Source: Myxococcota bacterium (GTDB taxonomy: Bacteria > Myxococcota_A > UBA796 > CAJQPC01). From it: a DNA stretch of 64,000 nucleotides. Where the stretch lies: positions 1 through 64,000 of the forward strand of contig JAZAMN010000020.1 of the NCBI GenBank assembly GCA_036229005.1. Reading direction: 5' to 3'. Both the position numbers and the translations under genes were made by a program. The notes below the pieces were generated by a model that saw only the letters and a list, made by a program, of their open reading frames with translations, had not been told where the DNA came from and ran no database searches. This document shows positions 1 to 37,415 of this stretch, piece by piece; positions within the stretch are counted from its first letter, which is position 1, and every line of letters starts with the position of its first letter.

Positions 1-282
1 GGTCGAGCACCCCTCCTTGAACTAAGTCCACGGCAAGACCACATCCTCCGCCAGGACCGGGAGGGAGAGCCTCCGCCGATCCACCCTTCACCGAGTCCGG
101 ATGAGTCCAACGAGGAAACTGGACGCCGACGTGCCAGGAAACACCATGCCTTCGGGGAAAAGCCGGACACGCCTTGCGGGGTGAGCCTGCTCGCTGGGAA
201 GCTTCTACCGACCTTTACGGACAAGTATGCCTTGTCCAAACGGACAGCACCATGCTATCAGAGCTCTCAGAGAGGACCATCC

Positions 283-981
283 ATGACCAAGAAAGCAGTC
301 GTCCTGTTCAGTGGCGGACTGGATTCTACCACCTGCCTCGCGATGGCGATCGATCAGGGGTTCGAACCGGTTCCCTTGAGTTTCGACTACCACCAACGCC
401 ACAAGGTCGAACTCGACGCCGCTAGAAGCGTGCTTCAGCACTACGGAATCTCCAAGCACTACATTTTCAACGTCGCGCTATTCAAGGAGATTGGAGGCTC
501 CGCGTTGACAGATGCCAATATCGAGGTGCCGCACCACCAATCTCTCGACGAAGTGAGCACAGGGATCCCAAGCACCTACGTCCCCGCTCGAAATCTGGTG
601 TTCCTTTCCTACGCACTCGGTGTTGCCGAGCAGTCGAAGGCCCATGACATCTTCATCGGCGTCAATGCTGTCGACTACTCCGGCTACCCAGATTGCCGCC
701 CCGAGTTCATCGAAGCCTTTCGGGCCGTCGCCAACCTTGCTGTGAAGGAAGGAGTCGAAGGTGGGGTGTTTCGAATTCACACGCCCCTGATCGCCCTGAC
801 CAAAGCCCAGATCGTCCAGGCTGGCTCCAAGTTGGACGTCCCCTACCAGTTGACCCATAGTTGCTATTCCCCCGTCGATGGACTCGCTTGCGGGCATTGC
901 GACTCTTGCCTCCTCCGCCGAAAGGGATTCGAAGAAGCCGGGCTTCCCGACCCGACCCGCTACAGCCCTACGACCTCGTGA
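283..981 (+). CDS. queC: 7-cyano-7-deazaguanine (preQ0) synthase QueC
   Basis: PP-loop [32 protein letters not shown] and Zn motif SCY...CGHCDSC. ATG at 283 follows AGAGGA. Confidence 0.96.
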
Positions 982-989
982 GGCCAAGG

Positions 990-1628
990 GTGGCCTACAC
1001 AGTTAAAGAGACCTACCTCACACTGCAGGGCGAAGGCACTCACGCAGGGCGAGCGGCCGTCTTCTGTCGGTTCACAGGCTGCAATCTATGGTCGGGTCGT
1101 GAGCGGGACCGAGAGTCCTCCGCCTGCAGTTTCTGTGATACCGATTTCGTGGGTACCGACGGTCCTGGAGGGGGACGGTTCGCCAGCGCTCCAGACCTCG
1201 CAGCTCACATCTACGAAGTGTGGAGGGCCCGCGCATCTGGGGGCAAGCCCTACGTAGTGTTCACAGGCGGGGAACCGCTGCTTCAGTTGGACCAACCTCT
1301 CACCGACGCTTGCAAAGCTCGAGGGATAGAAGTGGGCGTGGAGACCAACGGAACCCGTCCTCTACCGTCAGGAGTGAACTGGGTCTGCGTCAGCCCCAAG
1401 GCAGGTACCAAACTGGTGGTCCGGACTGGACAGGAACTAAAACTAGTCTTCCCACAATCGGGCTTGCGGCCTGAGGACGTTGGAGGACTAGCCTTCGACC
1501 ACTTCTTCCTCCAGCCCATGGATGGGCCTGACCAGGCGGCAAACACGCGCCTGGCCGTGGACTACTGCCTCCGCAACCCAACGTGGCGCCTCTCCCTTCA
1601 GACCCACAAGCTCATCGGGATCCCATAA
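990..1628 (+). CDS. queE: 7-carboxy-7-deazaguanine synthase QueE, Cx14CxxC-type radical SAM
   Basis: TLQGEG, CRFTGC-x14-CSFCDTDF, FTGGEPLLQ, ETNGT, WVCVSPK and WRLSLQTHK. GTG start at 990 (978 is an alternative). Confidence 0.95.
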   Translation: MAYTVKETYLTLQGEGTHAGRAAVFCRFTGCNLWSGRERDRESSACSFCDTDFVGTDGPGGGRFASAPDLAAHIYEVWRARASGGKPYVVFTGGEPLLQLDQPLTDACKARGIEVGVETNGTRPLPSGVNWVCVSPKAGTKLVVRTGQELKLVFPQSGLRPEDVGGLAFDHFFLQPMDGPDQAANTRLAVDYCLRNPTWRLSLQTHKLIGIP

Positions 1629-2776
1629 TGTCGACTGACACGACATCGCCCCTGTTCGGACACCTTCCAGACCACGCGAGCGAGGCCGACCATCGCGCCC
1701 TTGCAATCGATAAGGTTGGAATCAAGGACCTTTCCTATCCCATCCAGGTACTGGACCGCAAAAACCAAGTCCAGCATACGGTGGCAAACGTCAACCTCTA
1801 CGTAAGCCTGCCCCAACACTTCAAGGGCACGCACATGAGCCGGTTCATCGAGATCCTAAATGCCCGACGGGGGGAAATGACGATCCGTAACATGCCGGAG
1901 ATCCTCTCCGAAATCCAGGACCGATTGGAGGCTGAGGACGCCCACATCGAACTAGAGTTCCCCTTCTTCATCTCGAAGAGAGCTCCCGTGAGCGGCGTCG
2001 AATCGCTGATGGAGTACGGGTGTAGCTTCACTGCCTCGAAGCAGGGCCCCCATGTAGACTTCGTGCTCGGCCTTCGGGTACCAGTAAAGAGCCTCTGTCC
2101 TTGTTCAAAGGCAGTCAGCCAATACGGCGCCCACAATCAACGCAGTCTGGTCGACGTCCGAATCCGGTCAAGCGAGTTCGTCTGGATCGAGGACGCTGTC
2201 AGTGCGGTCGAGAGCTGCGCATCCTCCCCCCTCTTCGCTCTGCTCAAGCGCGAGGACGAGAAATTCGTCACCGAGTTGGCATACGACAATCCCAAGTTCG
2301 TCGAGGACCTTGTACGCGACGTAGTCTTGTCCCTTCGAGCTCTGCCAGGCGTTCGGTGGCTCCACGTCGCTGCCGAGAACCAGGAGTCTATCCACAATCA
2401 TTCCGCATACGCGGAGATTGAGTGGAGCCTGGAAGAGGACGTGACAGCGCGTCAGCAGGACCTGGCGCTTCCTTCGGTGGGACAGTCGGACGAGGAGCTT
2501 CCCTTCGGAGTCTGGCTCAAGCGACAGCGACAGGCCCGCGCCTTCAGCCAGCAGGAACTCGCGGGTCACCTGGGAGTGTCCGCGGCCCACCTTAGCCGCG
2601 TCGAAACGGGTGAGAAGAGGCTATCAGCAGACGCCCTGCAGCGGGCCGCGGATCTCTTGGGCCTGGACGGGGACCTCGTCGCGCTGAGGGCTGGGATCGT
2701 CCCACCAGAGCTTCTGGCAGTCATCACCAGGGATCCCGGGGCGTTCCGTCGCTGGGCCAGCAACGCGCCGCAGTAG
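1628..2776 (+). CDS. folE2: GTP cyclohydrolase IB (FolE2) with C-terminal XRE-family HTH
   Basis: IDKVGI, KGTHMSRF, SLCPCSK, GAHNQRS, LLKREDEK, NPKFVEDLVRD and ESIHNHSAYA. These are followed in frame by LKRQRQARAFSQQELAGHLGVSAAHLSRVETG (HTH). ATG overlaps the queE stop (TAATG). Confidence 0.93.
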   Translation: MSTDTTSPLFGHLPDHASEADHRALAIDKVGIKDLSYPIQVLDRKNQVQHTVANVNLYVSLPQHFKGTHMSRFIEILNARRGEMTIRNMPEILSEIQDRLEAEDAHIELEFPFFISKRAPVSGVESLMEYGCSFTASKQGPHVDFVLGLRVPVKSLCPCSKAVSQYGAHNQRSLVDVRIRSSEFVWIEDAVSAVESCASSPLFALLKREDEKFVTELAYDNPKFVEDLVRDVVLSLRALPGVRWLHVAAENQESIHNHSAYAEIEWSLEEDVTARQQDLALPSVGQSDEELPFGVWLKRQRQARAFSQQELAGHLGVSAAHLSRVETGEKRLSADALQRAADLLGLDGDLVALRAGIVPPELLAVITRDPGAFRRWASNAPQ

Positions 2777-2889
2777 GAACCTGCGCAACTGGCGTCGAAA
2801 CCCTGGCCACCTGAAGCTCAGGTGAGCTGTAGTTTTGCCAAACGGCAAGCTCGGTGGTATCAGAGGCGGCCTCACTCCGTCGGGAAACG

Positions 2890-3804
2890 ATGCTCACCCT
2901 CCTCTTGGCCTGTACCGATTCCAAGCGCTTCCCGCCGGCCCCTGGCCTTAGGATGGAGGCGAATGTGGCCAAGCCGCTATTGGAAACTCGAAAGGCATGG
3001 AAGGCTGCACTGCGCGGTTCCGAACCCGTGAGCCGGGCCGGGAAGCTCTACAAGGGTGGCTACTGGACCGCCGCAACCCGCGCCAGGATCGACGCGGCGG
3101 TGCCGATCAAGACACTCGTCGTCTCGGCTGGCCTCGGACTAGTTGATGTTCAGGATTGGGTTCCCTCCTACGCGGCGACGTTCACCCCGGGAACTCCCGA
3201 TTCTATTCCCGGAGCTGGGAACTCCGGCGCGTCGCGGCTGTGGTGGAGCGGGCTGGGCGCAGCTGACCGTTTCAAGCGGGAGGTGACCGGCCAACCTGAC
3301 CCCAGAGTCATCGCGGCGCTGCCAACTCGATACCTAGACGCCGCGCAACCCGCGCTCGCCGACTTCGTCAGAGTGCATGGCCACGAGCGGCTTGCCGTCC
3401 TTGGCGGCGTCGGCGGCAAGTCTCAGTTTCCGGAGTTCGAACAGAGTTGGGTTGCGCTCGACTTGAGAATGGTCCACAAGTTGGGTGGGACCGCGGGCCA
3501 GTTGACGGCACGCGCCCTGCGCTGGGTCTGCGACCAGTTGGACAGTCCGGCCAGCGCCAACCCCGACAACCTTCGCAGGCTCCTGGCCCCCTTGGTCGAC
3601 CCCGATGCTCCTCCGCTCTACCCCAAGCGCAAGAAAAGGACGCCGGAGGAGGTCGAGGCCTGGATCTTGAGGGCGTGGTCCCAAAAGACACCCCCCACAT
3701 CAGCGACTGCGGCACTCCGCCGATTCCGCGCCGAAGGCAATGCCTTCGAGCAGAAGCGATTCAGTTCCATCTACCGTGCCCTTGACGCGCAGAGGGAGGA
3801 CTAG
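2890..3804 (+). CDS. YaaA/DUF328-like protein, putative DpdC
   Basis: CTDSK...AGKLYKGGYW...VVSAGLGLV...VPSYAATF resembles the YaaA-like fold reported for DpdC. It is translationally coupled to the dpdB-dpdA genes. Confidence 0.6.
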   Translation: MLTLLLACTDSKRFPPAPGLRMEANVAKPLLETRKAWKAALRGSEPVSRAGKLYKGGYWTAATRARIDAAVPIKTLVVSAGLGLVDVQDWVPSYAATFTPGTPDSIPGAGNSGASRLWWSGLGAADRFKREVTGQPDPRVIAALPTRYLDAAQPALADFVRVHGHERLAVLGGVGGKSQFPEFEQSWVALDLRMVHKLGGTAGQLTARALRWVCDQLDSPASANPDNLRRLLAPLVDPDAPPLYPKRKKRTPEEVEAWILRAWSQKTPPTSATAALRRFRAEGNAFEQKRFSSIYRALDAQRED

Positions 3805-4931
3805 TGGCAACAAAGTTCGTCGATCGAAGGGCGCTACAGCTTCACCAACACGATGACTACCCGGTCTATGTCTTCTGCCTCGCACCGGCCGAAGTCCTGA
3901 GGGTCGCGGCGATCAGCCGAATCGACCGGAACGACGAAGGTGAACTCATCGGGTATCAGAGGGACGAAGTCAAGCGCCACGTCAACGACATTTTCGAGTA
4001 CGTCGAAGCCGGACCGGTGTTGTTCCCCAATGCGATCATCTTGTCGTTCAACGAAGAAGTCCGGTTCCGAAGAAGTCGCGGCCCCAACACCGACGATGGC
4101 TTCTCCACCTCCGGCGTTCTAGAAGTCCCACTCCCGGACGACGGGGAGCCGAAACCGGCATGGATTGTGGACGGACAACAGCGCGCCCTGGCCTTGAGTC
4201 GAACTAAGAACCAAGCGCTGGCCGTGCCTGTCGTAGCGTTCGTTGGGGACCGCGTTGACATCCAACGCGACCAGTTCCTCCGGATCAACAACACCCGACC
4301 GCTTCCCCGCGGTTTAGTTACGGAACTGCTCCCCCAGGTCGACACGACCCTACCTCGACGGATGGCGGTTCGGAAGTTGCCATCGGCCATTTGCGACCTG
4401 CTGAACAGCGTTCCTGAGAGTCCCTTCCGCGGGCTCATCAAGCGTCCTTCAGTCCGGGGGGACGCTGCCAAGACTGCCGTAATAACCGACACTTCCGTTG
4501 TCGACATGGTTCGGCAGCGCTTCAAGAGCCCAAGTGGCTGTCTCTTCCCCTACTACAACATGGCGTCTGGGGAGACGGATACACAGGCTGTGATGAACCT
4601 CTTGATTGACTACTGGCGGGCGGTAGCAGACACATTCCCGGAAGCATGGGCGCGTCCCACCACCCGGAGTCGCCTGACGCACGGGGCCGGGATCAAGTCC
4701 ATGGGAAATCTGATGGATACCATCATGGGACAAGTCCGTCCTACGGATGATGGATACGACATTGCCATGCTAGGTCTCAGTCGCGTGGCACCAATCTGCC
4801 GTTGGACCTCAGGTCACTGGGAAGGCCTGAACGGAATGCACTGGAAGGAGATCGAGAACACCCCGCGTAGCGTTCGACTTCTCACCAACCATCTGCTGCG
4901 CGAATACCACTTGTCGGCGAACCGTACGTGA
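3804..4931 (+). CDS. dpdB: DGQHR/DndB-like protein DpdB (copy 1)
   Basis: GYQR, FPNAIIL, WIVDGQQR, QFLRINNTRPLP and SRLTHGAG. Overlaps the dpdA start. Confidence 0.88.
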   Translation: MATKFVDRRALQLHQHDDYPVYVFCLAPAEVLRVAAISRIDRNDEGELIGYQRDEVKRHVNDIFEYVEAGPVLFPNAIILSFNEEVRFRRSRGPNTDDGFSTSGVLEVPLPDDGEPKPAWIVDGQQRALALSRTKNQALAVPVVAFVGDRVDIQRDQFLRINNTRPLPRGLVTELLPQVDTTLPRRMAVRKLPSAICDLLNSVPESPFRGLIKRPSVRGDAAKTAVITDTSVVDMVRQRFKSPSGCLFPYYNMASGETDTQAVMNLLIDYWRAVADTFPEAWARPTTRSRLTHGAGIKSMGNLMDTIMGQVRPTDDGYDIAMLGLSRVAPICRWTSGHWEGLNGMHWKEIENTPRSVRLLTNHLLREYHLSANRT

Positions 4932-6184
4932 AGTTCTTCTACGCAGACGCTCTGGACCTTGTGGACCCTGGGTATGACTTCAGAAAGGACAAGTTCTCTC
5001 CCGGCCGTATGCCCCAGCGAGATGACGTCTACGCACATGAACTAATGACCCCCGAGCGACCCTACGATGGCCTCCTGGTCAGCCGCTTCCTGCTCGACGG
5101 AAGAGGTTCTCAGGGCCGCTATACCATGGCGCAGCGGCAGCGCTTTGTTCGCAACGGAGCTCAGCGGTTCCTCCGGTTTCCAGCCGATGGGCGATATGAC
5201 CCGGACAGGTTCCCGATCCTCTGTGACTGTGGAGCCTTCAACTATCGCAACGACCATGAGCCTCCGTACTCCGTAGAGGACATGGTTGAGTTCTACGAAC
5301 TCGGCGGCTTCACGCACGGTGTCTCTGTGGATCACATGATCGGAACCTTCGACCCGATGCTAGACCACCCAACCATTGGAGGCATTCCTGCAGAACTGCA
5401 GAGGCGGTACGACATCACAGTCGCGAATGCCGAACGCCTCCGCAGCATCGTTGTGCGAGACCAACCCCGGTTTACTGCTCTTGGCGTTGCGCAAGGCTGG
5501 AGCCCAGAATCCTATGCTCGGGCGGTGCAGTCCCTGATCGCCATGGGCTACGACTACGTTGCCCTGGGCGGCCTCGTGCCCCTCAAGACGAGAGAAATCT
5601 TGGCTGTTCTCGAGGGCGTAAAGGCGGTAACTGCAGGCAAGACCAAGCTCCACCTCTTCGGCATCACGCGGCTGGAAAACTTCCAGGTATTCCGCGACGC
5701 AGGAGTCGCGAGTTTCGACAGTACATCGCCGCTCCGTCAGGCGTTCAAGGACGCGAAAGACAACTACTACTCAGCTTCCGGCCACTATTCAGCAGTCCGG
5801 GTGCCCCAGGCAGACGTCTACCCAAAACTAGTACGTCGAATCCGAAAGGGAGAGGTCGAGCGCCTCGAGGCCGTTCGACTCGAACGCGCATGCCTTGAGA
5901 GCCTCTACGCGTTGGACCGAGGGGAGGTGAGGGTGTCCGAGGCGATGGAAGCACTCCGCTCGTACGAGGGCCTTTTTGGTGGCAACTCCAAGTGGGCAGC
6001 CGTCAAGCGGACTCTCGAAGACAAGCCCTGGCAATCCTGCGAGTGTCCAATCTGCCGTGAGATTGGCATCGACGTCGTCATTTTCCGAGGAGCGAACCGG
6101 AACCGACGCCGCGGCTTCCACAACCTCCTGTTCACACAAAAGACCCTTCACGAATATCGAACCGGAAGCCCTGCAGATGCCTGA
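4928..6184 (+). CDS. dpdA: DNA 7-deazaguanine transglycosylase DpdA (TGT-like)
   Basis: N-terminal MKFFYAD..D.VDPGYDF...RDDVYAHE. TGT-like motifs DCGAF, SVDH, AQGW, LGGL, HLFG and SFDS. Zn site CECPIC...GFHNL. Confidence 0.93.
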   Translation: MKFFYADALDLVDPGYDFRKDKFSPGRMPQRDDVYAHELMTPERPYDGLLVSRFLLDGRGSQGRYTMAQRQRFVRNGAQRFLRFPADGRYDPDRFPILCDCGAFNYRNDHEPPYSVEDMVEFYELGGFTHGVSVDHMIGTFDPMLDHPTIGGIPAELQRRYDITVANAERLRSIVVRDQPRFTALGVAQGWSPESYARAVQSLIAMGYDYVALGGLVPLKTREILAVLEGVKAVTAGKTKLHLFGITRLENFQVFRDAGVASFDSTSPLRQAFKDAKDNYYSASGHYSAVRVPQADVYPKLVRRIRKGEVERLEAVRLERACLESLYALDRGEVRVSEAMEALRSYEGLFGGNSKWAAVKRTLEDKPWQSCECPICREIGIDVVIFRGANRNRRRGFHNLLFTQKTLHEYRTGSPADA

Positions 6185-7295
6185 AACCATCACCCTTCCC
6201 GCCCTGGCTCTCACCCAAAGCCCTGGACGCCGAATCTTCGCCTTCGGCGTGGACGGCAAAGACGTACCCCGGTTCGCCGAGGTGTTTCGTGCCTCCAGGA
6301 AGGACGGCGGCACACTGTTCGGGTACCAGCGCCACGAAGTCCGTCGGCACATCGAGGAGATCCGGCGCTACGTTGAAAGTGAGCGTCCAATGATCCCCAA
6401 CGCAGTGGTACTGGCGTTCTCGCCCAAGGTCCGGTTCGAGGCACTGGACGGCTACCCGGAAGGGCCATCGACCATAGGAAAGCTCCATATCCCTGTCTCC
6501 GACAACGCCGACGAGGCCCCGACTGGCTGGATCGTTGACGGCCAACAGCGCCTGACGGCAATCCGGGAGGCCAACGTCGACCAGTTCAAGATGTTCGCGG
6601 TCGGCTTCATCGCAGCTGACGAAGGTGAACAGCGAGAGCAGTTTATTCTTGTCAATAACACTCGCCCCCTGCCCAAGTCGCTCATCTATGAACTGCTCCC
6701 CGGCGTGGACGCGGAGCTACCACCAGCCTTGGCGAAGCGGCGAATGCCGACACTGCTCGTCGACCTACTGAACAACACCCCCGGATCGCCGCTTTACCAC
6801 GTTGTGCGCCAGCACACGAACCCGTCGGGCCGCCTCCGCGACAATTCGTTGATCAAGATGCTGGAGAATAGCCTTAGCGACGGGATGCTATACCGCTACC
6901 GCCTGACAGAGCCAGCAGAGACTCAACTGGAAGGCATGGCCCGACTCCTCATGGAATACTGGTCTGCTGTGAAGCAGGTCTGGGGGGACATCTGGGAGCT
7001 CAAGCCACGGCAGTCCCGCCTACTTCATGGTGCAGGAGTGGTGAGCCTCGGGTTCCTCATGGACGCCATCGCTGGGAAGCATCAGGAAAAGGGATGGCCC
7101 ACCAGCGCGCTCTTTGCCGAAGAACTCGAGAAGATGAAGCCTCATTGCCGATGGGCAGCCGGGTATTGGGAGTTCGGGCCCTCCACGAAACTCCAATGGA
7201 ATGAGGTCCAAAACACCTCAAAGGACGTCCAGATGCTGGCGAATCACTTGATTCGGATCTACCTGCGCTTGCCTGGCGAAGCGCCGCCTCATTGA
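6177..7295 (+). CDS. dpdB: DGQHR/DndB-like protein DpdB (copy 2)
   Basis: GYQRHEV, IPNAVVL, WIVDGQQR, QFILVNNTRPLP and SRLLHGAG. ATG at 6177 overlaps the dpdA end. Confidence 0.88.
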   Translation: MPETITLPALALTQSPGRRIFAFGVDGKDVPRFAEVFRASRKDGGTLFGYQRHEVRRHIEEIRRYVESERPMIPNAVVLAFSPKVRFEALDGYPEGPSTIGKLHIPVSDNADEAPTGWIVDGQQRLTAIREANVDQFKMFAVGFIAADEGEQREQFILVNNTRPLPKSLIYELLPGVDAELPPALAKRRMPTLLVDLLNNTPGSPLYHVVRQHTNPSGRLRDNSLIKMLENSLSDGMLYRYRLTEPAETQLEGMARLLMEYWSAVKQVWGDIWELKPRQSRLLHGAGVVSLGFLMDAIAGKHQEKGWPTSALFAEELEKMKPHCRWAAGYWEFGPSTKLQWNEVQNTSKDVQMLANHLIRIYLRLPGEAPPH

Positions 7296-7637: not shown

Positions 7638-9905
7638 ATGCGACTGGAGATTCGGGCCAGCGACGTAAAGGACTGGTTCCAGTACCGCTGCGACCGAAAG
7701 TTGATCTATTCGTCTCTGCCGCAGGCTGAGCGAGATGATGTCCCCGTCGAAACTATCCACAAAGCTCGGTCCATTCGCGCCGATGAAGGCATCGAATTCG
7801 AGGCGGACATCGTGGCTACTCTCCGAAGGCGTGGCGAGAGTGTCCTTGGACCACGCTCCCACGGGGACCACTACGTCGCCGAAGCTCTCACGAAGGCATT
7901 CCTTCTCCGCGAGAGGACAGAGGAGTACCTCCATCAAGGCTTGTTGAAGGAGACACCTGCTCTTCGCAGGGACCTGGATCTTGCTTCGAACACAACGCTT
8001 CGAAATGCGCTACCAGACATCCTCCGCTGGGTGGTGGAGGACGACGAGTACCGCCTTCGCGTCGTGGACATAAAGCATACGCGCCGCCCAACCCAGTACC
8101 ATCGAGCGCAGGTTGCCTTCTACGCGCTACTCCTGCGCGGGATGTACGCGGCGTTCGGCATGGACGCTCCACTGAGCCCAAAAGGCAACATCTGGCACAT
8201 CAGCGATGGTGGAGGCTGGGAGGAGGAGAGGGGACTCTTCGACCTCAACCCCTACGAGGAGATGCTGCGGGACTTCTTCCGGCGTCAGTTCCCCAACATC
8301 TCGATTCAGCGTCTTGGCCGGGGCATCGACGAAACGGCTTTCCATCTCTACTTCAAATGCGAGCAATGTGACTGGCTGCACCATTGCGGGAAGAGCATCG
8401 CCGCTGACCTACCAGTTTCGGAGTGGGACATCTCCGCGATTCCAGGAATGTCCCACCAGTCAAAGGCGGCATTGGTGCGTGCAGGGGTGAAGACAGTCGG
8501 CTCCGCGGCTGCTGCAGAGACGCTCCCGCCTGAGAGTTGGTCGCTTCGGACGCGAGGCAAGCTCCTTATCAGCCGCGCCGGAGCCCTTGTCGAGGGTGAT
8601 TGGAGCCGTCTTCCCGAACACCACACTTGGCTAATGCCGCCGAAGGTGGACGTACCGATCTTCCTTGTCGTGGACTCCGATCCGGTGAGCGGGCACCTGG
8701 CCACCCTGGGGTGCCTGGTTGGTGGAGTTCGTCTGGAAGAGCCCCGGATTGAGGTCATCGCGAACCCCGGCCAGGAGCTCCCCGCGATCAAGCGCGTGCT
8801 CGGCCGGCTGATTGACGTCCTTCACGACTTGGACGCACATAATCGAGAGGCTTCAGAAGAAACAGCCCTCACAAGCCACATCTTCGTATACGAGCCGGCG
8901 GAGGCCGCAGACCTACAGACTGCAATGTCACGCCATCTGGACGACCCGGGGATTCGTACCGGGCTGCTCAATCTCGTTCGGCTGTTCCCGCCAGAAGAGA
9001 TTCGGGCGCCCGAGCCGGAATACCGAGGCGCTCACCATCTCCCAGCAAGTGCGCTGCGGAGCGTCATGGAGCAGTTGTACGTGCTCCCGGCAAAGGTGTC
9101 CTACGACCTGGCTCGGGTGAGTCGCTCACTACGCACCGCAAACCCTCCCCCCAAGGCGCCGTACCTTCCGCGCCGGCCGTTCGCGCGCCCGTTCTCGGCC
9201 AGGCTGTCCATCGACATCATGCGCGATCGCTCGATGGCCAACGACGGGGCGATCCGAGCAGACGTAGCGGCTCGACTTTCGGCAATGGCAGGTCTGTGCG
9301 AGTGGGTCCTTGAGGACAATCGTAAAGTCATTGCGGGAGGCGGCAAGGGGCTTCTTCGCTTGAAGAAGTCCCCTTTTCGGTTCCAGAGTGCGTTCCACCC
9401 GCTGGAAGCGACTGACCTCGAGACCCTTCTCGCGCAGGAATTGCTCCAGTCTCGTGCCGAGCGACTTGCGGCATTGGTCGAACTAGCTCGCCCCGTACAC
9501 GAACGCCGTGAACGACTCCGATGCTTCGCCGGATTGGTGCTGAAGGACCTCAAGAAGCAAGGCGCGTACTACGTCATGAATTTCGAAGTGCCGAAGGAAA
9601 GCCGCGACGCAGAGTTGCGGCCGGGGTCGCTGGGTCTAATCCTCACCGATGATGATCCGGACCTCCGGCTCGATCCGCGGTCGTGGCCACATTGTAGCGC
9701 AAACCTGGTCCACGTGAGTGCCCAAGGCGCGTACATCACACTCAGAATGTACAAGAAGACGTGGACCTCCGCTGTCATGGCCGCGGTGCGGGAGCGACTC
9801 AAGCATGGAGGGGATTGGTGCCTTGACCAAGCCCACGTCGATGTGACCACCCAGCGAATGGAATCCCTGCTTCGCTTCCTCAGCGAGGTGGACCATGGTG
9901 CGTGA
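7638..9905 (+). CDS. RecB/Cas4-like PD-(D/E)XK nuclease domain protein (TM0106-like architecture)
   Basis: LPDIL...VVDIK...QVAFY nuclease motifs. N-terminal Cys (YRCDR) plus CEQCDWLHHC, a possible Fe-S staple. HhH-like IPGMS...AGVKTV. Confidence 0.7.
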   Translation: MRLEIRASDVKDWFQYRCDRKLIYSSLPQAERDDVPVETIHKARSIRADEGIEFEADIVATLRRRGESVLGPRSHGDHYVAEALTKAFLLRERTEEYLHQGLLKETPALRRDLDLASNTTLRNALPDILRWVVEDDEYRLRVVDIKHTRRPTQYHRAQVAFYALLLRGMYAAFGMDAPLSPKGNIWHISDGGGWEEERGLFDLNPYEEMLRDFFRRQFPNISIQRLGRGIDETAFHLYFKCEQCDWLHHCGKSIAADLPVSEWDISAIPGMSHQSKAALVRAGVKTVGSAAAAETLPPESWSLRTRGKLLISRAGALVEGDWSRLPEHHTWLMPPKVDVPIFLVVDSDPVSGHLATLGCLVGGVRLEEPRIEVIANPGQELPAIKRVLGRLIDVLHDLDAHNREASEETALTSHIFVYEPAEAADLQTAMSRHLDDPGIRTGLLNLVRLFPPEEIRAPEPEYRGAHHLPASALRSVMEQLYVLPAKVSYDLARVSRSLRTANPPPKAPYLPRRPFARPFSARLSIDIMRDRSMANDGAIRADVAARLSAMAGLCEWVLEDNRKVIAGGGKGLLRLKKSPFRFQSAFHPLEATDLETLLAQELLQSRAERLAALVELARPVHERRERLRCFAGLVLKDLKKQGAYYVMNFEVPKESRDAELRPGSLGLILTDDDPDLRLDPRSWPHCSANLVHVSAQGAYITLRMYKKTWTSAVMAAVRERLKHGGDWCLDQAHVDVTTQRMESLLRFLSEVDHGA

Positions 9906-12900
9906 TGAGCTTCGTCTCTTCCTTCGCGACCCAAAGGGCTTCGCCGCAGGGGTAACGTCCAACTCCTCTGCCGACTGGCTTGCTGGACTGGAGTTCGCAG
10001 AACGCGCGATCGAAGAGAGCGAATCGGAGTACGCGCTGCGCGAGGCTCAACGGGTCGGGTGGACTGGAATCGCGGACCAGCGAGTAGCTCTCATTCTCGG
10101 TCCACCTGGAACCGGCAAGACGTTCGCACTCTCCTGGATGGCCTTAGGCTTCATTGAGGGTCGGCGCCTCGCGGAGAAGCCTTGTCGAGTCTTTGTCACG
10201 GGCTTCACGCGCAACTCCATCGCCAATCTGCTCGAGGCCGTAGGAGAAAGAGCAGAACATGCCACCAAACCGGTTCGGTTCGTCTGGCTAGGGAACCCGC
10301 CGGATCAAGGCCTTCCCGATATTGTCGAGGTGCTCCAGCCAAAACAACTCTCCGAGGTCCTGAAGGCCGAGCACGTGGTGGTCGGCGCCACGGGGTGGTC
10401 GCTCTATCGGGCGATTGATCAGGGCAACCTGTCCAGGTCAGATGGCCCGACGGCCCCCCTGTTTGACCTGGTCTGCATCGACGAAGCGTCCCAAATGGTG
10501 GTTAGCCATGGATTACTGAGCCTCGCTGGTCTGACTCCTGGAGGGCGAGTGCTCGTCGCGGGCGACGACCAACAACTGGCCCCAGTGCGGGAAACGAACG
10601 ACCGTGAGGTCGATGGGCAGAAGCTCGGCGCAAGCCTCTATGGGTTCCTCAAACACGCTGGCGTCGCCGAGTTTCCGCTGGATGAGACGTTTCGGCTGAA
10701 CGACCTCCTCGCGCGCTATCCCGCACGAGCGTTCTACGACGGGCGATACCGATCAGTTGGTGCTGCGAAGGAGCGGCGCCTCAGCCTGCAGGACGGCTGG
10801 GAGGAAGGCCTACCCCAATGGATGAAGCACGCCCTAGACCCCGAAAACCCAGTCGCGATCCTCCTCTACGACGGCCTGCTCGCAGGAACGGCCAACGAGT
10901 TCGAAGCTCTGCTTGTCCAGGAACTCGTTGAGGCACTGAAAGAGCGCTTGCCCAACGCCGACGACATCGACACCGCCACGCTCTGGCATGAGCACCTGGC
11001 GGTCGTTTCGCCGCATCGGGCTCAAAACTCGATGATTCGACAACGACTACGCACCACTGGGCTGGACAGGGATTGCGTGGTCGAAACGGTCGACCGAATC
11101 CAAGGTCGGGAGCGGGACTCGATCATTGCCTCCTACACGGTTTCTGATCCCGAGTTTGCACAGATGGAAGCCGACTTCATCTTCAGCCCGGAGCGCTTCA
11201 ACGTTACCGTCACGAGAGCCAGGACCAAGCTGATTCTCATCGTTAGTCGACGCCTGCTCTCGGTGATCCCGGATGAACAGGAGACTTTCGAGCGTGCCCA
11301 GGTTCTGAGGAACTACGTCTACGAGTCTCATGAACTCGCGACGTGGGACGTTCGAGGCCCAGGCGGTCAGAAACTGCCTGTCACCGTGCGAGTGAAGTCC
11401 TTCAGAGAGGACACCGAACACACGCTTGTAGAGGAGCCCACACAAGCGCCGCCGGAGCCTGAACTCCTGTCTCCGGAACTGAAGGAGTTGCTGGACGAGA
11501 TCAGGAAGGCAACTGGCCGATCCAACAGGGGCAACGTCGCGGACTTCGGTCTTCGAAGGATTCTTTCTCGACACACGGATGAGATTCGAGCGGGGTTTCG
11601 GGCCCTCCAAGTTGCGGGATTCGTCAATGTGTCGCACAGGGACGGCGGCCACGGTGTGTTCTGGACCGCGAGCATCAAGGATCCGCCGGCTGCGCCCCAC
11701 GCTTGTACCGCTCAAACTGTCGCCGCGGAGGTCCGGGGCGTCATCAGGACGACGCGACGAGGTCCAAAGGCCCCCGCCTACTGGGCCCTCCGGAACAACT
11801 TCCAGTGGATTGGTGAGAACGGCGACGACATGCTTGAGCCTCTCCTGGATGAACTGGTCGACGCCGGGGAACTCGTGTGGGGGGAGCATCCGCGGGGATG
11901 GAGGACCATTGATGTCGCAGAGGCGGACGAACCAGAGGAGCCAGTTGTCCGGCCGCCGCTGCCCGACGAGCCCTCGGTTTCCGACTTCGAACTTCTGAAC
12001 TGGCTCGAAGACCGCGAGCAACGACGAGTCAACTTCGGCGTTTTCGAGTCGTGGTTCACGTTCGACGAAGTGCTCAAAGGCACGGGCCGCGAGCGCGAAG
12101 CCCTGGCAGCAGCCCTCCGCCGACTCCGCCAGGACGGCTGGCTAATGCAACTCGACGACGGACGAATCCGCACCCGCGCAGGTGAGCTTGCAAGGGAGCT
12201 CCGCTACATCAAGCAGCGGTTCAAGGCAGGGGACGCAGACAACCGGCCATTCCTGGTGCGGTCCGCCAAGGTCCGGTTCCAGGACCGAGACAAGCCAATC
12301 CGCAGCATCCCGCTGAGCCGGACGGTGACCGCACTGAACGGCGAGCTTGAGTCCGTCGCCGGCGCAGAAGAAGCACTCGCGGCACTGCACTCGATGCTGA
12401 GCACGAGATGGAGTGTTCCAGACCCCCTGATTTCGGGCTTCCAGGACAGGGGCCTGCGTGAGTTGGTGCCTGCATGGTTTGGCCGTGGGGACACACGGTC
12501 ATTCGTCGTCACGGCCGAGACTGGCTCCGGCAAGACGGAGGCTGCGGCTCTTCCATTGATCTTGGCATCGGCCATCGACACTCTCAACGGCGTTGCCGGC
12601 TGCCGAGCAATCTTGGCGTACCCGCGCATTCGATTGGCGAACAACCAGGCGCAGCGTCTGGCCGGCTACTTGGCGGCACTTGCCAGAGAACCCGGGATGC
12701 CGACCCTGTCTCTCGCTGTGCAGTCCGGTGAGGTTCCCTCAACGCCAGAGAAACTACGTCAGCAGTGGAGGTCTCTGGGCTCCTCGACCTTCGAGTTCCC
12801 GCTGTTCTCATGTCCCGAGTTGGGGTGCGACGGAAAGCTCGCCATCAAGCTCGCTGGGCGAATCGACGAGCCCGACCACCTTTCCTGCCGAAGCTGCGCA

Positions 12901-15900
12901 TGGGAATACCTCGGATGGGTGGGGACAAAGAAGTCGATGGGAAGGCGAGCTCCCACCCTGTTGATTCTGACGACAGAATCGCTGCACGGCTGGCTGCACA
13001 GCCACTGGCGCGGAAGGCTATTTGGCGACGCGCCGGATTCTGCCGCGCCGCGAGCCCTTGTGGCGGACGAGATCCACCTGTACTCACAGATCCATGGTGC
13101 GCAGGTCGGCTACGCATTTCGACGTCTGCTCGCTCGAATGCGCATCAACTCGGACGGCATTCAGCCGCTAGCGATCGGCATGAGTGCGACGCTGGGAGAG
13201 CCCCAGCGCATCTGGATGGAGTTGTCCGGTGCAGCGCCGGTCTCGCTCATTTCTCCCACCCAGACCGAGCGGGAGCCGAATCCAAAGTCACGAGAGTACT
13301 TCTACTTCGTGCAACCGGAAGTGGAGTCCCGAGGCAAGGACATCGCCGGCGCCTCAACCACGATCCAGGCCCTGATGTGCCTGGCCCACGGAATGCGCCG
13401 GCGCACGGGCGCCCGTGGTGGATACCGAGCCCTCGCCTTCCTCGACTCCATCGACAAAGTGAAGCGACTGCACGGCGACTACCTGGACGCGGAAACGAAT
13501 AGTCGGCTGGCGACGCTCCGAACGAGCCGTCTGGGCACCGTAAGCCCTGAGGTGGAACCTCGGACCGGATGCTGCGGGCAGCCTGAGTCCTGTAGCCGTT
13601 TCATCGACGCGGAATGCTGGTACTTCGCCTCGAAGGACCCTCACCAAGAGAAGGCGAGCGGCCCCTACCATCCTGGCGACACTCTGGAGGTTGCAAGCAC
13701 TCCGATCTTCTCTGGAGCGAAAGAAGGCGTTGATGAGCGCATCAGGACGAGCGACGTCGTGTTCGCTACGTCGTCTCTGGAGGTCGGCTTCGACGACCCC
13801 GACATGACTCTGGTGTATCAGCACTACGCCCCGTTGAACGCAGCCAGCTTCGTCCAGCGCAAGGGACGCGGAGGACGCGGGGCGGACGACCGACCGGTCA
13901 CCGGCGTGACGCTGTCGGTGTACAGCCCTCGCGACACCTGGTTCTTCCGGCGGCCGGAACGGATGCTCGAAGCGCACCGCTTCCAGGTCCCGCTGAACAT
14001 GCGGAATTACTTCGTTCGCCGTGGGCAGGTACTGTCGACCCTTCTCGACGCCGCCGCGCGCGAGCACTTCTACCGCGCAGATCCGTCTCCGGACTTTCCT
14101 CCAACGGTCTTTGATGCAGCCTCCCAGATGGTGGAGGAGATCTTCGGGTCGGAGATCTATGGTGACCTGGGAGTCGCCGATCTACGTGACCTTTGGCGTA
14201 GGACTCGACCGGGATTCCTGCCAGAGGCAACGCACGGGCTGTCAAAATGGGTCGACCACCTTCCTGAAGTGCCTAGCGCCCTGTTCGAGACCATCAACCT
14301 CCCGGCTGTCCGGGTTCAGTTTCAGGGCGACAGCGGCCAGTTGGAGATGCGAGACGAAGACATCAGCCTCGCCTTGTTCAACGCTGCGCCAGGCACTGCG
14401 ACTCGCCGCTATGGAATGCAATCCACTCATTGGGCGCAACCGGCCCCAGGCCGGAGTCCTTGGAGTGCCGTCGAAGCAGATGCTTCTACCGAGCAGTTTG
14501 AGCCGGTGGAGGGAGGGCTCGACGCGCTCAAGCGGGAACTTCCGCGATACCTGCATGACGAGATTGGTGACGACGTGGCGCCCGCGGTCATTCGCCCCCG
14601 GGAGTTCCAGCTGTCCAGGCTCGGAGAGTTCTACGGCGCTACCTGGACGGGGGCGGTGGGCTACGAGCCCAGTTCGGGCACGTTCAGGGCGCTCAGCGAG
14701 GCAAGCGGCGTCCCAGCACTTCCCGTGAACCCGAAGAGCTCGGGGGCGCTGAAGGGCTTCCTGATCTGCGACGCCCGCCAGGAACGAGGCCAACCCCGGA
14801 AGGTCGGACAACTCGAACCGCTCACCACAGGCCTGTATGCCTACTACGGTCTTGGAACAGCTGAAGACGGCACGGGCTTGAAGGTGTCACGCATCTTCTG
14901 GGGCTCAGAGAGTCGGGTCGTGGTGGACGTCAACGAGTACAAGCGCGAAGAGTACCAAGTCGTCCAAACCTTCGTCGACCCGGTGGAGTATGACGCCTAC
15001 GCGAACCGAGGCGTCGGTGGAGTTCCGCGGGTCCAGCTCTATGGCTACTGTGTTGAGACCGAAGGGATTCGACTCCGACTCGATTCCTGCCAACTCGACA
15101 ACTTCGTCGCGCACTTCCAAGCCTTGATCGCAGGCACTGCGGACGAGCGCTGGCTCCGAGGACAGTTCTTCCGGTTCCTCGTGCTCAGCGGCGCGCCGAG
15201 GGCGGGCATGAACCGTTTCCAGGCCCGCGAACTCGCAGATCTCCTGGTTACCGCCCGCGCGATGGAGACTCGCGGCAAACAGCTAGCGAAGCTGCTGCGT
15301 CGTTGGGATGCCAAGCGCTTCGGTCAGCTTCTCCTGGGCACGTATCAGGACGCACTCGCGTACCATCCCCTCCTCACAGCGCGACGTGTAGAACAGCTGG
15401 GCGAGGAATTGCTGCGCCCCGCACTTTCTGGCATGGGTGCTTTCCTGCTGGAATGCGTGCGCCGTTGCGCGGACGATAATGAGTTCAAGGGGTACGTTCG
15501 CAGTCTGGCTGTGCACAGCTTGGCTGTTCGGCTCCAGCAGAACTTCGTCATCTACGGCGCTGGCGACGATCGACGCGTGCTGTTTCACTGCAAGCTGCCC
15601 ATCCAGTTCGGGGAACTCGCCGATGACGTCATCGTGGTTTGCGAGGACGGCCAGCACGGGGATGGCACCACCCGAACGTTCATAGAGCAACTCGATACCG
15701 CCTTCACGGAGTTTCGGGGAACGCTTTCGGAATGCCCGAACGCGCGCGAGGATGCCATCCTTCGCCGCATCCTGAACGATGAAGAGTTCATTGGTTGCTG
15801 GACGGACGAGGCGGCGAGTTCACGGTCTGACGAGAGTATTCGAGCTATGGTCGAAGAGCTGAAACTCGACCTTGAGGAGGACTCCGGATCGGTACAGGCA

Positions 15901-16323
15901 GCCCTTCGACTGCTTTGGGATACCGAGGAGTTTGGGGCCCACCGGTTCTCCTACCTGCAGCTCCATCGCGAAGTTCATTCGGTGGACGTCGCCCTGGAGG
16001 ATGAGATGGGACGAGCCCCCTCCGCATGGGAACTCGTCGGGCGCGTCGTGCGCCTCGCTGAGTCCGGCGACGAGACCGTTCCTGCCTGGAGCACCCTGCT
16101 CGAGGGCTACCGCGCTCTGGAGGATGCCAGTTCGGAGGGGTCTCTAGAGGCTTCAGCGCGGCTGGCCGACCAGGTGTACAAGCTCAGCGCACGGCTATGC
16201 GTCGACGGCTGCCAGGCGTGCCTGCACACCGGCTCGCCGCTCTTCCCTCCACAGCTGATGGACGCCACGGTAAGTCGCTTGGTGACTACTCAGCTGCACG
16301 CGTTCTTGGGGTGGCCACAGTAG
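9895..16323 (+). CDS. dpdJ: Fusion of SF1 (Dna2/Upf1-like) helicase and DpdJ-like SF2 DEAD/DEAH helicase
   Basis: N-half: GPPGTGKT, DEASQ, GDDQQL, SPHRAQ, TVDRIQGRERD and RFNVTVTRAR. C-half: RTRAGELARELRYIKQRF, ETGSGKTE, YPR..LANNQ, CPELGC...CRSC, DEIHLY, SATLG, ATSSLEVGFDDP, QRKGRGGR and terminal CVDGCQACL. Confidence 0.8.
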   Translation: MVRDELRLFLRDPKGFAAGVTSNSSADWLAGLEFAERAIEESESEYALREAQRVGWTGIADQRVALILGPPGTGKTFALSWMALGFIEGRRLAEKPCRVFVTGFTRNSIANLLEAVGERAEHATKPVRFVWLGNPPDQGLPDIVEVLQPKQLSEVLKAEHVVVGATGWSLYRAIDQGNLSRSDGPTAPLFDLVCIDEASQMVVSHGLLSLAGLTPGGRVLVAGDDQQLAPVRETNDREVDGQKLGASLYGFLKHAGVAEFPLDETFRLNDLLARYPARAFYDGRYRSVGAAKERRLSLQDGWEEGLPQWMKHALDPENPVAILLYDGLLAGTANEFEALLVQELVEALKERLPNADDIDTATLWHEHLAVVSPHRAQNSMIRQRLRTTGLDRDCVVETVDRIQGRERDSIIASYTVSDPEFAQMEADFIFSPERFNVTVTRARTKLILIVSRRLLSVIPDEQETFERAQVLRNYVYESHELATWDVRGPGGQKLPVTVRVKSFREDTEHTLVEEPTQAPPEPELLSPELKELLDEIRKATGRSNRGNVADFGLRRILSRHTDEIRAGFRALQVAGFVNVSHRDGGHGVFWTASIKDPPAAPHACTAQTVAAEVRGVIRTTRRGPKAPAYWALRNNFQWIGENGDDMLEPLLDELVDAGELVWGEHPRGWRTIDVAEADEPEEPVVRPPLPDEPSVSDFELLNWLEDREQRRVNFGVFESWFTFDEVLKGTGREREALAAALRRLRQDGWLMQLDDGRIRTRAGELARELRYIKQRFKAGDADNRPFLVRSAKVRFQDRDKPIRSIPLSRTVTALNGELESVAGAEEALAALHSMLSTRWSVPDPLISGFQDRGLRELVPAWFGRGDTRSFVVTAETGSGKTEAAALPLILASAIDTLNGVAGCRAILAYPRIRLANNQAQRLAGYLAALAREPGMPTLSLAVQSGEVPSTPEKLRQQWRSLGSSTFEFPLFSCPELGCDGKLAIKLAGRIDEPDHLSCRSCAWEYLGWVGTKKSMGRRAPTLLILTTESLHGWLHSHWRGRLFGDAPDSAAPRALVADEIHLYSQIHGAQVGYAFRRLLARMRINSDGIQPLAIGMSATLGEPQRIWMELSGAAPVSLISPTQTEREPNPKSREYFYFVQPEVESRGKDIAGASTTIQALMCLAHGMRRRTGARGGYRALAFLDSIDKVKRLHGDYLDAETNSRLATLRTSRLGTVSPEVEPRTGCCGQPESCSRFIDAECWYFASKDPHQEKASGPYHPGDTLEVASTPIFSGAKEGVDERIRTSDVVFATSSLEVGFDDPDMTLVYQHYAPLNAASFVQRKGRGGRGADDRPVTGVTLSVYSPRDTWFFRRPERMLEAHRFQVPLNMRNYFVRRGQVLSTLLDAAAREHFYRADPSPDFPPTVFDAASQMVEEIFGSEIYGDLGVADLRDLWRRTRPGFLPEATHGLSKWVDHLPEVPSALFETINLPAVRVQFQGDSGQLEMRDEDISLALFNAAPGTATRRYGMQSTHWAQPAPGRSPWSAVEADASTEQFEPVEGGLDALKRELPRYLHDEIGDDVAPAVIRPREFQLSRLGEFYGATWTGAVGYEPSSGTFRALSEASGVPALPVNPKSSGALKGFLICDARQERGQPRKVGQLEPLTTGLYAYYGLGTAEDGTGLKVSRIFWGSESRVVVDVNEYKREEYQVVQTFVDPVEYDAYANRGVGGVPRVQLYGYCVETEGIRLRLDSCQLDNFVAHFQALIAGTADERWLRGQFFRFLVLSGAPRAGMNRFQARELADLLVTARAMETRGKQLAKLLRRWDAKRFGQLLLGTYQDALAYHPLLTARRVEQLGEELLRPALSGMGAFLLECVRRCADDNEFKGYVRSLAVHSLAVRLQQNFVIYGAGDDRRVLFHCKLPIQFGELADDVIVVCEDGQHGDGTTRTFIEQLDTAFTEFRGTLSECPNAREDAILRRILNDEEFIGCWTDEAASSRSDESIRAMVEELKLDLEEDSGSVQAALRLLWDTEEFGAHRFSYLQLHREVHSVDVALEDEMGRAPSAWELVGRVVRLAESGDETVPAWSTLLEGYRALEDASSEGSLEASARLADQVYKLSARLCVDGCQACLHTGSPLFPPQLMDATVSRLVTTQLHAFLGWPQ

Positions 16324-16394: not shown

Positions 16395-17105
16395 TCATAG
16401 ACGAATCGAGAAGCGGCCCAAGGCCCCACGTTCTTCAAGCCAGTCTCGGACCTGGTCGTCCACGTCGGCAAGGGTAGCAGTCCCCCTCGCGACCTTCAAA
16501 AGAAACTCTCCGAGATTGGAGCGGCCCGACGACAGCTCCGCTAGCAGAGCGTCGCGTGCCTCGATGCCGCGCTTCAGAGCTTCCAGCGCCGACTCGTCCG
16601 GAGGAAAGGCCAGTCCCAAGCCGACGCCTTCTAGTGACACCTGCTGCATGCGGGCTGCGAGGTCGGATTGGGAGTCCATCTGATGGAGCGCCTTCCCGAG
16701 TTCGCCGATGGTGTTGAATTCGTCGGCGAGTCGCGCTTTCCAGCCACGTTGCAGCACACTCGATGTGTCTCGGACAAGGTCGGCAACTGCGCCAAGAACT
16801 GTGCCGGAGCCAAGGAGTCTCTCCGACGTGCTCTCCTCGGCCAGCGAGCCGCCCTTGGTTCGGAGAATCTTTAGCTTTCGCCCAAGCTCCTGCAGATCAT
16901 GGGTGTCGAGAGTGGAACGAACCTCGACAACTACAGGCTCCAGAGCCTCGCAGGTCTCGATGGCGTCACGGTGCCTCTCCAGGGCTTCCCCAGCGGATGT
17001 CAGTCCGTCACCGTAGATGCGACGCCGAACTGCGGCTCGGACACGATCTTCGGCCAGGGCCTCACGAAGGGCGTCTAGCGACGAGATTTCGGTCGACTCG
17101 GACAT
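16395..17105 (-). CDS. Hypothetical helical protein, positional DpdI candidate
   Basis: ATG at 17105 overlaps the dpdH stop. It is the last gene of the dpdE-F-G-H run, where dpdI sits in canonical clusters. C-terminus FLLKVARGTATLADVDDQVRDWL. Confidence 0.55.
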   Translation of the reverse strand: MSESTEISSLDALREALAEDRVRAAVRRRIYGDGLTSAGEALERHRDAIETCEALEPVVVEVRSTLDTHDLQELGRKLKILRTKGGSLAEESTSERLLGSGTVLGAVADLVRDTSSVLQRGWKARLADEFNTIGELGKALHQMDSQSDLAARMQQVSLEGVGLGLAFPPDESALEALKRGIEARDALLAELSSGRSNLGEFLLKVARGTATLADVDDQVRDWLEERGALGRFSIRL

Positions 17106-20100: not shown

Positions 20101-20386
20101 GCGTCTTCCACTGGAACTCCAGCCAGCGGATTAGATGCGACTTCCCGGAGCCCGGCTCCCCCTCGACAACACAGAACAGGTGGCTGTGGTCTGGGCCGGT
20201 CAATGCGTCCAACAGGCCATCTTCGCTGTCTTCACTCAAGAGGCCTGCGTTAACCCCCGCCGTCGTGAAGCCTTGGATGGGTGAGTGAACCGCCATGAAG
20301 ATGGCTCGCGTTCCTTCCAACGCTTCGGTTCTAAGCACAGCGGCCGCATCACGCGCCGTCCAGCACGCGTAGTTGCGAAAGGTCAC
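17105..20386 (-). CDS. dpdH: P-loop ATPase, DpdH-like
   Basis: Walker A GEPGSGKSHLIRWL, Walker B LVLLLEDIT, CLTCPHRDPCH and FYPLS. Downstream of dpdG. Confidence 0.75.
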   Translation of the reverse strand: MTFRNYACWTARDAAAVLRTEALEGTRAIFMAVHSPIQGFTTAGVNAGLLSEDSEDGLLDALTGPDHSHLFCVVEGEPGSGKSHLIRWLEFQWKTRRPDDLVLPVPRSNGSLEGVLREMRSGLPSSYQGLFAGLGKVHDTTLEGRARDFHSKLANSLSPDYFAGEAPIHAEWAAKYQLNRLVGHHLVLGEWSAPNRILETLAGGSERNSRVESFTIEDVHELALKLRAVRDRSVGPKAIQASRKFQKEADELGNLLDSGRPPAELEAEAEKVAPMLFRLREALDARFNAVVQDLVGVGRDGLTRAFRGLRAQLARENRRLVLLLEDITSFQGVDSQLLDVLIAKSSTEGSESLCDLLSVVGITTDFFNRSMKSYGNLRERIALHIHLGDGTSGEVDTGLALGSAAGRQEFAANYLRAIRAGVERIQNWDEAGGGSVPNVCLTCPHRDPCHRAFGATHSGVGFYPLSPRAIDRIFDALHDPQGTMGLRTPRGMVQHVLSPLLFHPERLEQGEFPPSNLEGEYLPKERGFLLGPAARVPDLLETPGDQARVRRLIAWWASQNPGAQTEHDADGNLSFAGIPRETFEAFGLPWLGDASLAVEAREQNSYDQAQSRTERGAEEETEESTDEASRARSTKRRSRNEKSSNRPARVSTGKMSDLRTDLRNWATVGGTKHGEQWSLLLMEVLDGLPWQVMGVPLWVRQTLFTKSSVALEGTRTTDVRHFVVPREGWVAHGLDAWLALRAKDGDAEFHRRQFARFQRRLKRLVLAHIEERMLKTPAGEMWNPAGTAAQVLLTRAWLRGQVSVDAPIADQWEAILGPDAGGALSSTGRTEGWGELVRRTGAYQVRFREMLRAWIQLTRGAGTDDRGIVDAGSIAAAFVSMAHRLEPDLPPKNPDLPQALLIWSSIADIGRLTRRVVPALPDHEFKRIRRVLEGLESRCSGRSLPQYLRDVQQVVSTLHEQDPKCPNHLVSRWYDVLSKLKDKQMGEGDDLLASLDEFVFDFTDTDELEVLEAADPTKRLAWVIKAPAADLAFLGQQVSAAADTVDALWGYVETLLKDAGDDASSAPEDLKAAGTKIRDAAKAIMTSLDLEEG

Positions 20387-23855: not shown

Positions 23856-23859
23856 GCCG

Positions 23860-37180: not shown

Positions 37181-37415
37181 CCCCACAGTGCAGATTTCAG
37201 GTATACAAAGGCCACGACATTCTGCGGCATCATCCTCACAGACGCAAGGCGCAAGCACAGCCACCGCACAGCGCCGGCACGCACGCGCACCCGACCGCAC
37301 CCCGTCGACAGTGCACGCCCCGCGCAACCTCCCCCCTCGCCAACACCCCTCCCCCTCCTCTATCCAGAGTGTCCACCACCTCCCCATCACGCGGAGGTGC
37401 CACCCGGAGGACCCC

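Follow-up and report, generated by a model that had tools for sequence, protein, structure and literature searches.

The gene at 7638-9905 on the forward strand of the window (the whole 64,000-nucleotide stretch of DNA analysed here) probably encodes the subunit that cuts DNA in a variant of the Dpd restriction-modification system with neither DpdK nor DpdD. This reading draws on conserved sequence motifs, on predicted structures and on the gene neighborhood, and the features to which we refer below are as follows.

181-7295, forward strand: modification arm with queC, queE, folE2-HTH, dpdC, dpdB, dpdA and a second dpdB (profiles)
7638-9905, forward strand: nuclease subunit gene (755 aa), apparent front half of a split Dna2/TM0106-like nuclease-helicase
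7638-8417, forward strand: Cas4/RecB-type PD-(D/E)XK nuclease domain with a 1+3 Cys arrangement (predicted Fe-S staple), aa 1-260 (motifs and fold)
8427-8513, forward strand: HhH-like helical stretch, aa 264-292, with D264 and G270 invariant and helices in the model
8640-9368, forward strand: DEDD/RNase H-like exonuclease fold of uncertain activity, aa 335-577, with conserved D346, D348, E422 and D542 (structure and conservation)
9411-9899, forward strand: stalk helix, beta-barrel and stalk helix, aa 592-754, a predicted UPF1/SMUBP2-type 1B module and predicted docking surface (model)
9895-9905, forward strand: stop/start overlap of 11 nt at the split point, with a conserved junction
9895-11364, forward strand: N-terminal SF1 helicase core (UPF1/Dna2-like, AAA_11/AAA_12) of the fusion, with intact motor motifs
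11989-16323, forward strand: DpdJ (YprA-family SF2 helicase) part of the 2142-aa fusion (PADLOC profiles)
16395-17108, reverse strand: homologue of DpdI (237 aa) that converges on dpdJ (matched by a profile built from canonical DpdI-position proteins)
17105-27108, reverse strand: dpdH, dpdG, dpdF and dpdE (profiles)

The Dpd island in the window

The island occupies bases 1-27108 and has a GC content of 61.7%, compared to 70.1% in the rest of the window. It contains both the DpdA, DpdB and DpdC set and the DpdE-J set by which a Dpd system is recognized. DpdA scored 507 bits with NF041059 (cut-off 200), NF041060 (DpdB) was above its cut-off twice, and DpdC was matched by PADLOC with an E-value of 6e-40. 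PADLOC profiles also matched DpdE, F, G, H and J, of which only DpdG passed its NCBIfam cut-off, so the restriction proteins of the window are divergent. The profile of DpdI-position proteins matched the window DpdI with an E-value of 1.6e-4 and its relatives with values down to 5e-14. The window begins at the contig end, where the queC frame is open from base 1. No queD was found in positions 1-981 or, by tblastn with two QueD queries, in the whole genome, and the island runs off the contig start.

DpdK and DpdD were not detected. NF041068 (DpdK) had no match in the genome, which is 94% complete and whose PLD-domain matches are located on another contig, and the PLD motif HxK...SxN was absent from the ORFs of 1-27300, while a positive control worked. 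Our own DpdD profile, which finds the DpdD proteins of G192, L120, L164 and L165, had no match in the window; NF041061 (DpdD) had none in the genome, and its control gave none either. No other nuclease family was found among the dpd genes of the window.

Several other genes were observed in this region. FolE2 (1583-2776) carries a C-terminal XRE-type HTH domain (aa 308-367) and is a possible island regulator. At the right edge of the island, a VapE-like P-loop protein (27196-28728, reverse strand) is likely part of a mobile element; no tRNA was found in the window. A second low-GC patch (34920-37738, reverse strand) includes a gene that PADLOC matches to BnzB (E-value 2e-48); the 495-aa gene before it matches PDC-M09A, and the two may be a defence pair of the Bunzi type.

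Domain composition of the nuclease subunit

The PD...DIK...QxxxY motifs reported in the earlier note are present as P126-D127, D144-I-K146 and Q158-xxx-Y162, and the 1+3 Cys arrangement reported there corresponds to C18 and C241/C244/C250, which flank the nuclease core and are nearly invariant in homologues. In an alignment of 117 of the 120 homologues listed (three partial or extended ones were omitted), D127, K146, H155, Q158, Y162, C241, C244 and C250 are conserved in all 117 sequences, D144 in 116, and C18 in all 110 rows without a gap at this position. The motifs and the fold of PD-(D/E)XK nucleases of the Cas4/RecB type, i.e. PD...(D/E)xK and QxxxY, are thus found in the ORF. The four conserved cysteines fit the Fe-S staple nucleases (Cas4/AddB/Dna2), and a cluster is predicted. 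Family matches are weaker: Pfam PDDEXK_1 is narrowly above its cut-off (22.5 versus 22 bits), PADLOC Cas4 matches with an E-value of 4e-6, TIGR03491 (TM0106 family) gives 38.4 bits, below its curated cut-off of 97.45, and a PDB sequence search with the nuclease profile returned nothing at an E-value of 1. A diverged DpdD was ruled out as the identity of the protein (hhalign probability 0.1). As for the HhH-like motif mentioned previously, a stretch with invariant D264 and G270 does occur at D264-G283; no family scan labelled it HhH, a name that we assume for it here.

The AlphaFold model of the 755-aa protein has a pLDDT of 93 and a pTM of 0.92, and was compared with PDB entries by VIA-align. 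Residues 1-271 resemble Cas4 (7mi4; Z 11.8, rmsd 4.3, 199 aligned), with Exo5 and SSO0001 among the other matches. Mouse Dna2 (5ean) aligns across residues 5-734 with Z 9.9 and an rmsd of 23.7, which means that the positions of the domains differ from those in the model. Residues 585-755 form a helix, a barrel and a helix, for which the nearest named look-alikes are the 1B domains of SMUBP2 and UPF1 (scores 0.90 and 0.89, to be taken as leads only); by structure, segments of RNase_H_2/AAA_11 helicases also match this part (TM 0.66-0.71). Given its resemblance to a helicase 1B module, the nuclease gene seems to end in parts of the helicase itself. The description of the ORF as a nuclease is too narrow, as it also comprises a DEDD-fold domain and the predicted stalk and 1B barrel of the helicase.

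The DEDD-fold domain had been overlooked in the earlier note. Residues 337-575 resemble the exonuclease domain of Pol epsilon (4m8o, DnaQ-like fold; Z 12.5, rmsd 3.9, 183 aligned), and the middle domain gave TM values of 0.60-0.63 in structure comparison, with an architecture similar to that of the TM0106 family. D346, D348, E422 and D542 lie on the expected elements, but their order is D-D-E-D, and position 538 is variable with no H/Y, so the His/Tyr general base of enzymes such as MrfB (H258) has no counterpart there. D346 is present in 31 of 31 split proteins and D542 in 30 of 31, and neither occurs in any of 34 single-chain relatives, all of which have Q/E/H in place of the first carboxylate. 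No alignment was obtained by hhalign between the middle domain and 25 YprB-type RNase_H_2 domains. A second active site in this fold is hence offered as a predicted lead rather than as a finding.

Origin of the split and the SF1-DpdJ fusion

The overlap of 11 nt reported previously is exact, with the next ORF beginning at 9895. This ORF joins an SF1 helicase to DpdJ. Its SF1 part keeps Walker A, DEASQ, GDxxQL and the C-terminal motifs (54 rows). The PADLOC DpdJ profile PDLC02895 (2112 positions) matches it end to end (aa 2-2135), indicating that the SF1-DpdJ fusion has already been catalogued, and PDLC02896 matches aa 699-1391, with NF041067 below its cut-off. A sequencing frameshift as the cause of the split was rejected, because at 36-59% identity all 51 loci measured retain the junction. 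Nor is the split local to the source genome, as had been supposed; it is common to the whole clade, down to about 35% identity, and all 64 testable loci have separate genes rather than a Dna2-type single chain of nuclease and SF1 helicase.

The idea that an ancestral nuclease-helicase was split, with its helicase half fused to DpdJ, has gained support from collinear single-chain relatives and from a triple fusion. In the own-phylum sample, seven single ORFs of 1312-1671 aa (from six genomes) match the nuclease profile and then the SF1 profile, and an exhaustive profile search found an SF1 domain after the nuclease part in 42 of 47 hits of at least 850 aa; a previous word-based search for longer fused forms had returned none. 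Three single-chain proteins (P0177, P0178 and P0180) match nearly the full nuclease profile. Moreover, P0168 is a 3312-aa chain of nuclease, SF1 helicase and DpdJ, the only one returned by a search for further triple fusions. The split nucleases and the DpdJ-fused SF1 domains each form one supported clade, P0168 included. In the DpdJ tree, P0168 is sister to 17 split rows (the DpdJ and nuclease trees are quick searches on subsets of rows), and in the SF1 tree it is nested on a long branch, its exclusion being rejected by the AU test (p 0.02). P0168 could be a retained intermediate or a re-fusion, and given the SF1 tree it may be the latter. That the nuclease gene comes from a Dna2/TM0106-like nuclease-helicase of one chain, severed directly ahead of the first RecA-like domain, is well supported by these sequence comparisons.

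Predicted complex of the nuclease subunit and the SF1 helicase

Modelling of the two products as a pair, for which the earlier note had called, predicted a complex. For aa 300-755 of the nuclease and aa 1-490 of the SF1 part, the complex score was 0.69, compared to 0.00 for the best of three controls; the mark used for this score is reached by 116 of 157 solved pairs and by 2 of 215 mismatched pairs. The runs agree in at least 65% of contacts, the pLDDT of the partners is at least 85, and the predicted interface mostly consists of stalk helices 592-604 and 736-750 on the first RecA-like domain. Two parts of one divided gene tend to score well through their resemblance to solved UPF1/Dna2 structures, so the model supports binding and does not show it. 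The two overlapping gene products are thus predicted to reassemble through the stalk helices, which would rebuild a nuclease-helicase on DpdJ.

Distribution of the nuclease gene and absence of DpdK and DpdD

We collected 87 loci, 66 of them with a full-length nuclease gene; most cover only 10 kb on either side and may thus have a dpdK further away. Both the absence of DpdK and the tight linkage to SF1-DpdJ were borne out: neither DpdK nor DpdD profiles matched in any of the 87 loci, and the next gene is the SF1 gene in all 64 loci that have a full-length nuclease gene followed by 300 nt or more of sequence. SF1 and the DpdJ core share one ORF in 48 of 49 loci (the exception is interrupted by a transposon), dpdI is present in 43 of 44 loci and dpdH in 42 of 44. 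NF041068 had no match in five of five whole records and none above the cut-off in three genomes. These islands form one clade, so their exclusion with DpdK may reflect a single event and is not the statistical anticorrelation for which a test had been proposed. The gene is rare, being found in 1 of 401 genomes of its own phylum and, by a DpdH search, in 1 of 401 of another phylum (each time the seed only).

Replacement of DpdK alone, as first suggested, is too narrow a description: DpdD is missing as well, and dpdE is absent from five of five whole plasmid or contig records (L097-L101), being present in the window, G401, G402 and L003. The SF1 motor might make dpdE dispensable. One of these records (L101, MT835580.1), an unverified and unannotated entry filed as a phage that holds a whole island, may be a plasmid or a chromosomal contig.

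The nuclease gene accompanies dpdJ, dpdI and dpdH and is kept in every intact island examined, and dpdABC change place around it. Among 42 loci with at least 8 kb upstream, dpdA lies within the fetched DNA in 26 and not in the other 16. Two complete plasmids carry dpdAB beyond dpdF, and in G403 dpdA is located beside the C-terminal part of DpdJ on another contig. At loci with no upstream dpdA, no shared alternative modification module was found among 108 scanned proteins, i.e. 105 neighbours and DpdI-position ORFs (chosen from 140 listed) plus three DpdI-position ORFs; these were mixed mobile and housekeeping genes with one lone methyltransferase.

A DpdJ search of plasmids yielded 14 records, four of the nuclease type and ten others, to which a DpdA search added two genomes. 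None of these 12 other DpdJ islands matches the nuclease profile. Eleven have a PLD gene (seven of the 11 were used to build the DpdK profile, and identity was taken from RefSeq names or, for L122, from a pairwise match), and one, haloarchaeal, has an annotated PD-(D/E)XK gene. In the quick tree, the DpdJ proteins of L116 and L117 form the sister group, which has PLD; this fits replacement as one event rather than as a repeated trend.

Some loci show other arrangements. A divergent member with 27% identity (L082:526-13149) is laid out differently from the other islands: upstream of it, in the same orientation, are dpdG, dpdH, a 934-aa gene and a UvrD gene. In L072 (2386-4143), the nuclease C-terminus and SF1 share one frame; this locus has other frame breaks, and it is a candidate second fusion. 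In G344 (L103:13467-19447), L116 and L117, a larger PLD protein (about 245-267 aa) comes after a DpdJ variant, and DpdD gave no hit in the vicinity; this Dpd layout, too, has been little described. Besides, G308 (L105-L107) is an island for modification only: it has dpdCBAB and the que genes, and its 55 kb include no homologue of dpdE-J.

Proposed mechanism and alternative explanations

DpdA, DpdB and DpdC would mark self DNA with 7-deazaguanine, an activity established for Salmonella. DNA without the mark would be bound and opened by the DpdF-I/DpdJ complex, and single strands passed on by the SF1 motor would reach the Fe-S PD-(D/E)XK site, so that the rebuilt enzyme is the likely effector, degrading the DNA that the Dpd complex has opened. 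Since the Cas4/Dna2 fold of the nuclease is non-specific, self and non-self are probably read by Dpd subunits rather than by the nuclease. DpdK is itself only the presumed nuclease of canonical Dpd.

The nuclease-motor pair of the window is reminiscent of RecBCD/AddAB. Rather speculatively, the variant might be a RecBCD-like two-motor destroyer, in which DpdJ (3'-5') and the SF1 motor (which we take to run 5'-3' in this family) act on opposite strands, with cutting sites in the Fe-S PD-(D/E)XK domain and in the DEDD-fold domain, the latter site retained in this clade alone, licensed by the absence of 7-deazaguanine; it would then be the smallest Dpd restriction arm, with no DpdD, no DpdK and sometimes no DpdE. 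The YprA helicase MrfA is 3'-5' according to the portion of Bell 2025 considered here.

It is improbable, in our estimate, that the pair only takes part in accessory degradation, with another Dpd subunit making or triggering the first break and the Dna2-like enzyme resecting the broken foreign DNA, so that it would be no one-for-one replacement of DpdK. Fe-S nucleases of the Dna2, Exo5 and AddB types usually require a free end, which counts for this explanation, and the loss of DpdD and often of DpdE points to a wider rebuilding of the restriction arm. However, the window dpd genes include no other nuclease family that we could find, and the nuclease gene is retained in all intact islands examined. 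We give little credence to a role in the upkeep of self DNA, where the pair would repair DpdA/B base-exchange intermediates on the host chromosome in the manner of the MrfA helicase and the MrfB DEDD exonuclease. DpdJ is indeed a YprA/MrfA relative, and the MrfB core is among the structural matches of the middle domain (Z 9.6, rmsd 4.4, 168 aligned), but many other DEDD folds score above MrfB, the nuclease gene moves with dpdJ/I/H instead of dpdABC, and G308 has dpdABC and no such gene in its 55 kb. The slimmest chance is that of an RNA-directed or abortive arm, with the UPF1-like motor moving along RNA and the nuclease destroying RNA or the nucleic acid of the host after DpdJ senses infection: the SF1 core is of the UPF1/IGHMBP2 type, but the nuclease domain is closest in fold to DNases (Cas4, Exo5 and Dna2), JGI labels two single-chain relatives Dna2 (automatic names), and the motor is fused to a DNA helicase.

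Our preferred reading, a cutting subunit reassembled on DpdJ, bears on a restriction arm that is not understood protein by protein. The swap suggests that the nuclease of Dpd systems has its place next to dpdJ, and it provides catalytic residues to mutate, and complete plasmid islands lacking DpdD, DpdK and DpdE (Caulobacter sp. S6 and Methylobacterium sp. XJLW) offer a six-gene restriction arm for reconstitution. The fusion is also an example of a helicase divided at the stalk, with one part attached to a second motor. In annotation pipelines the gene is labelled as hypothetical or PD-(D/E)XK, and islands of this kind would be counted there as incomplete Dpd systems.

Comparison with known systems

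According to the part of Gedara 2023 considered here, DpdABC modify DNA and DpdD-K restrict, the individual roles of DpdD-K being unknown. The corresponding part of Bell 2025 mentions many uncharacterized Dpd-like classes, and its Table S1 lists the Caulobacter, Skermanella, Methylobacterium and Azospirillum fusions as 'Dpd-like helicase'. The gene pair is not described in the portions of GATOR-GC and of the 2026 BREX survey that were covered, nor was a description found in the literature searched. The island is a Dpd variant and not a new system, apparently undescribed as a subtype.

Compared to canonical Dpd (dpdA-K; Salmonella Montevideo type, e.g. Enterobacter cloacae pPOL9A), the window island shares homologues of dpdA, B, C and E-J, the que genes, the grouping in one island and, in the window, the low GC content. 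It differs in having no PLD DpdK and no DpdD, in having two dpdB genes and an upstream Fe-S PD-(D/E)XK gene, and in its DpdJ, which has an additional SF1 helicase at the N-terminus and lies in convergent orientation to dpdE-I.

An analogous swap of PLD for PD-(D/E)xK, together with a DNA2-like protein, is reported for archaeal BRIGADE in the part of Bell et al. 2025 considered here (bioRxiv 10.1101/2025.09.15.676423). BRIGADE systems are likewise deazaguanine-linked YprA helicase systems in which PLD is sometimes exchanged for a PD-(D/E)xK nuclease, and type I often has a DNA2-like helicase/nuclease fusion. In that part of the report they occur in halophilic archaea only and have usually two YprA helicases and an intact DNA2-like protein, whereas the window variant has bacteria as its named carriers, one YprA helicase (a single DpdJ) and a split Dna2-like enzyme with the motor on DpdJ. 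The haloarchaeal PD-(D/E)XK protein of L123 does not match the nuclease profile.

The single-chain bacterial Dna2/TM0106-like proteins P0177, P0178 and P0180 have the same domain order and the same catalytic and Cys residues as the split pair, but are one chain of 1200-1600 aa with no DpdJ. Eukaryotic Dna2 also couples an Fe-S PD-(D/E)XK nuclease to an SF1 motor, and the window protein has the DEDD-fold insert in addition.
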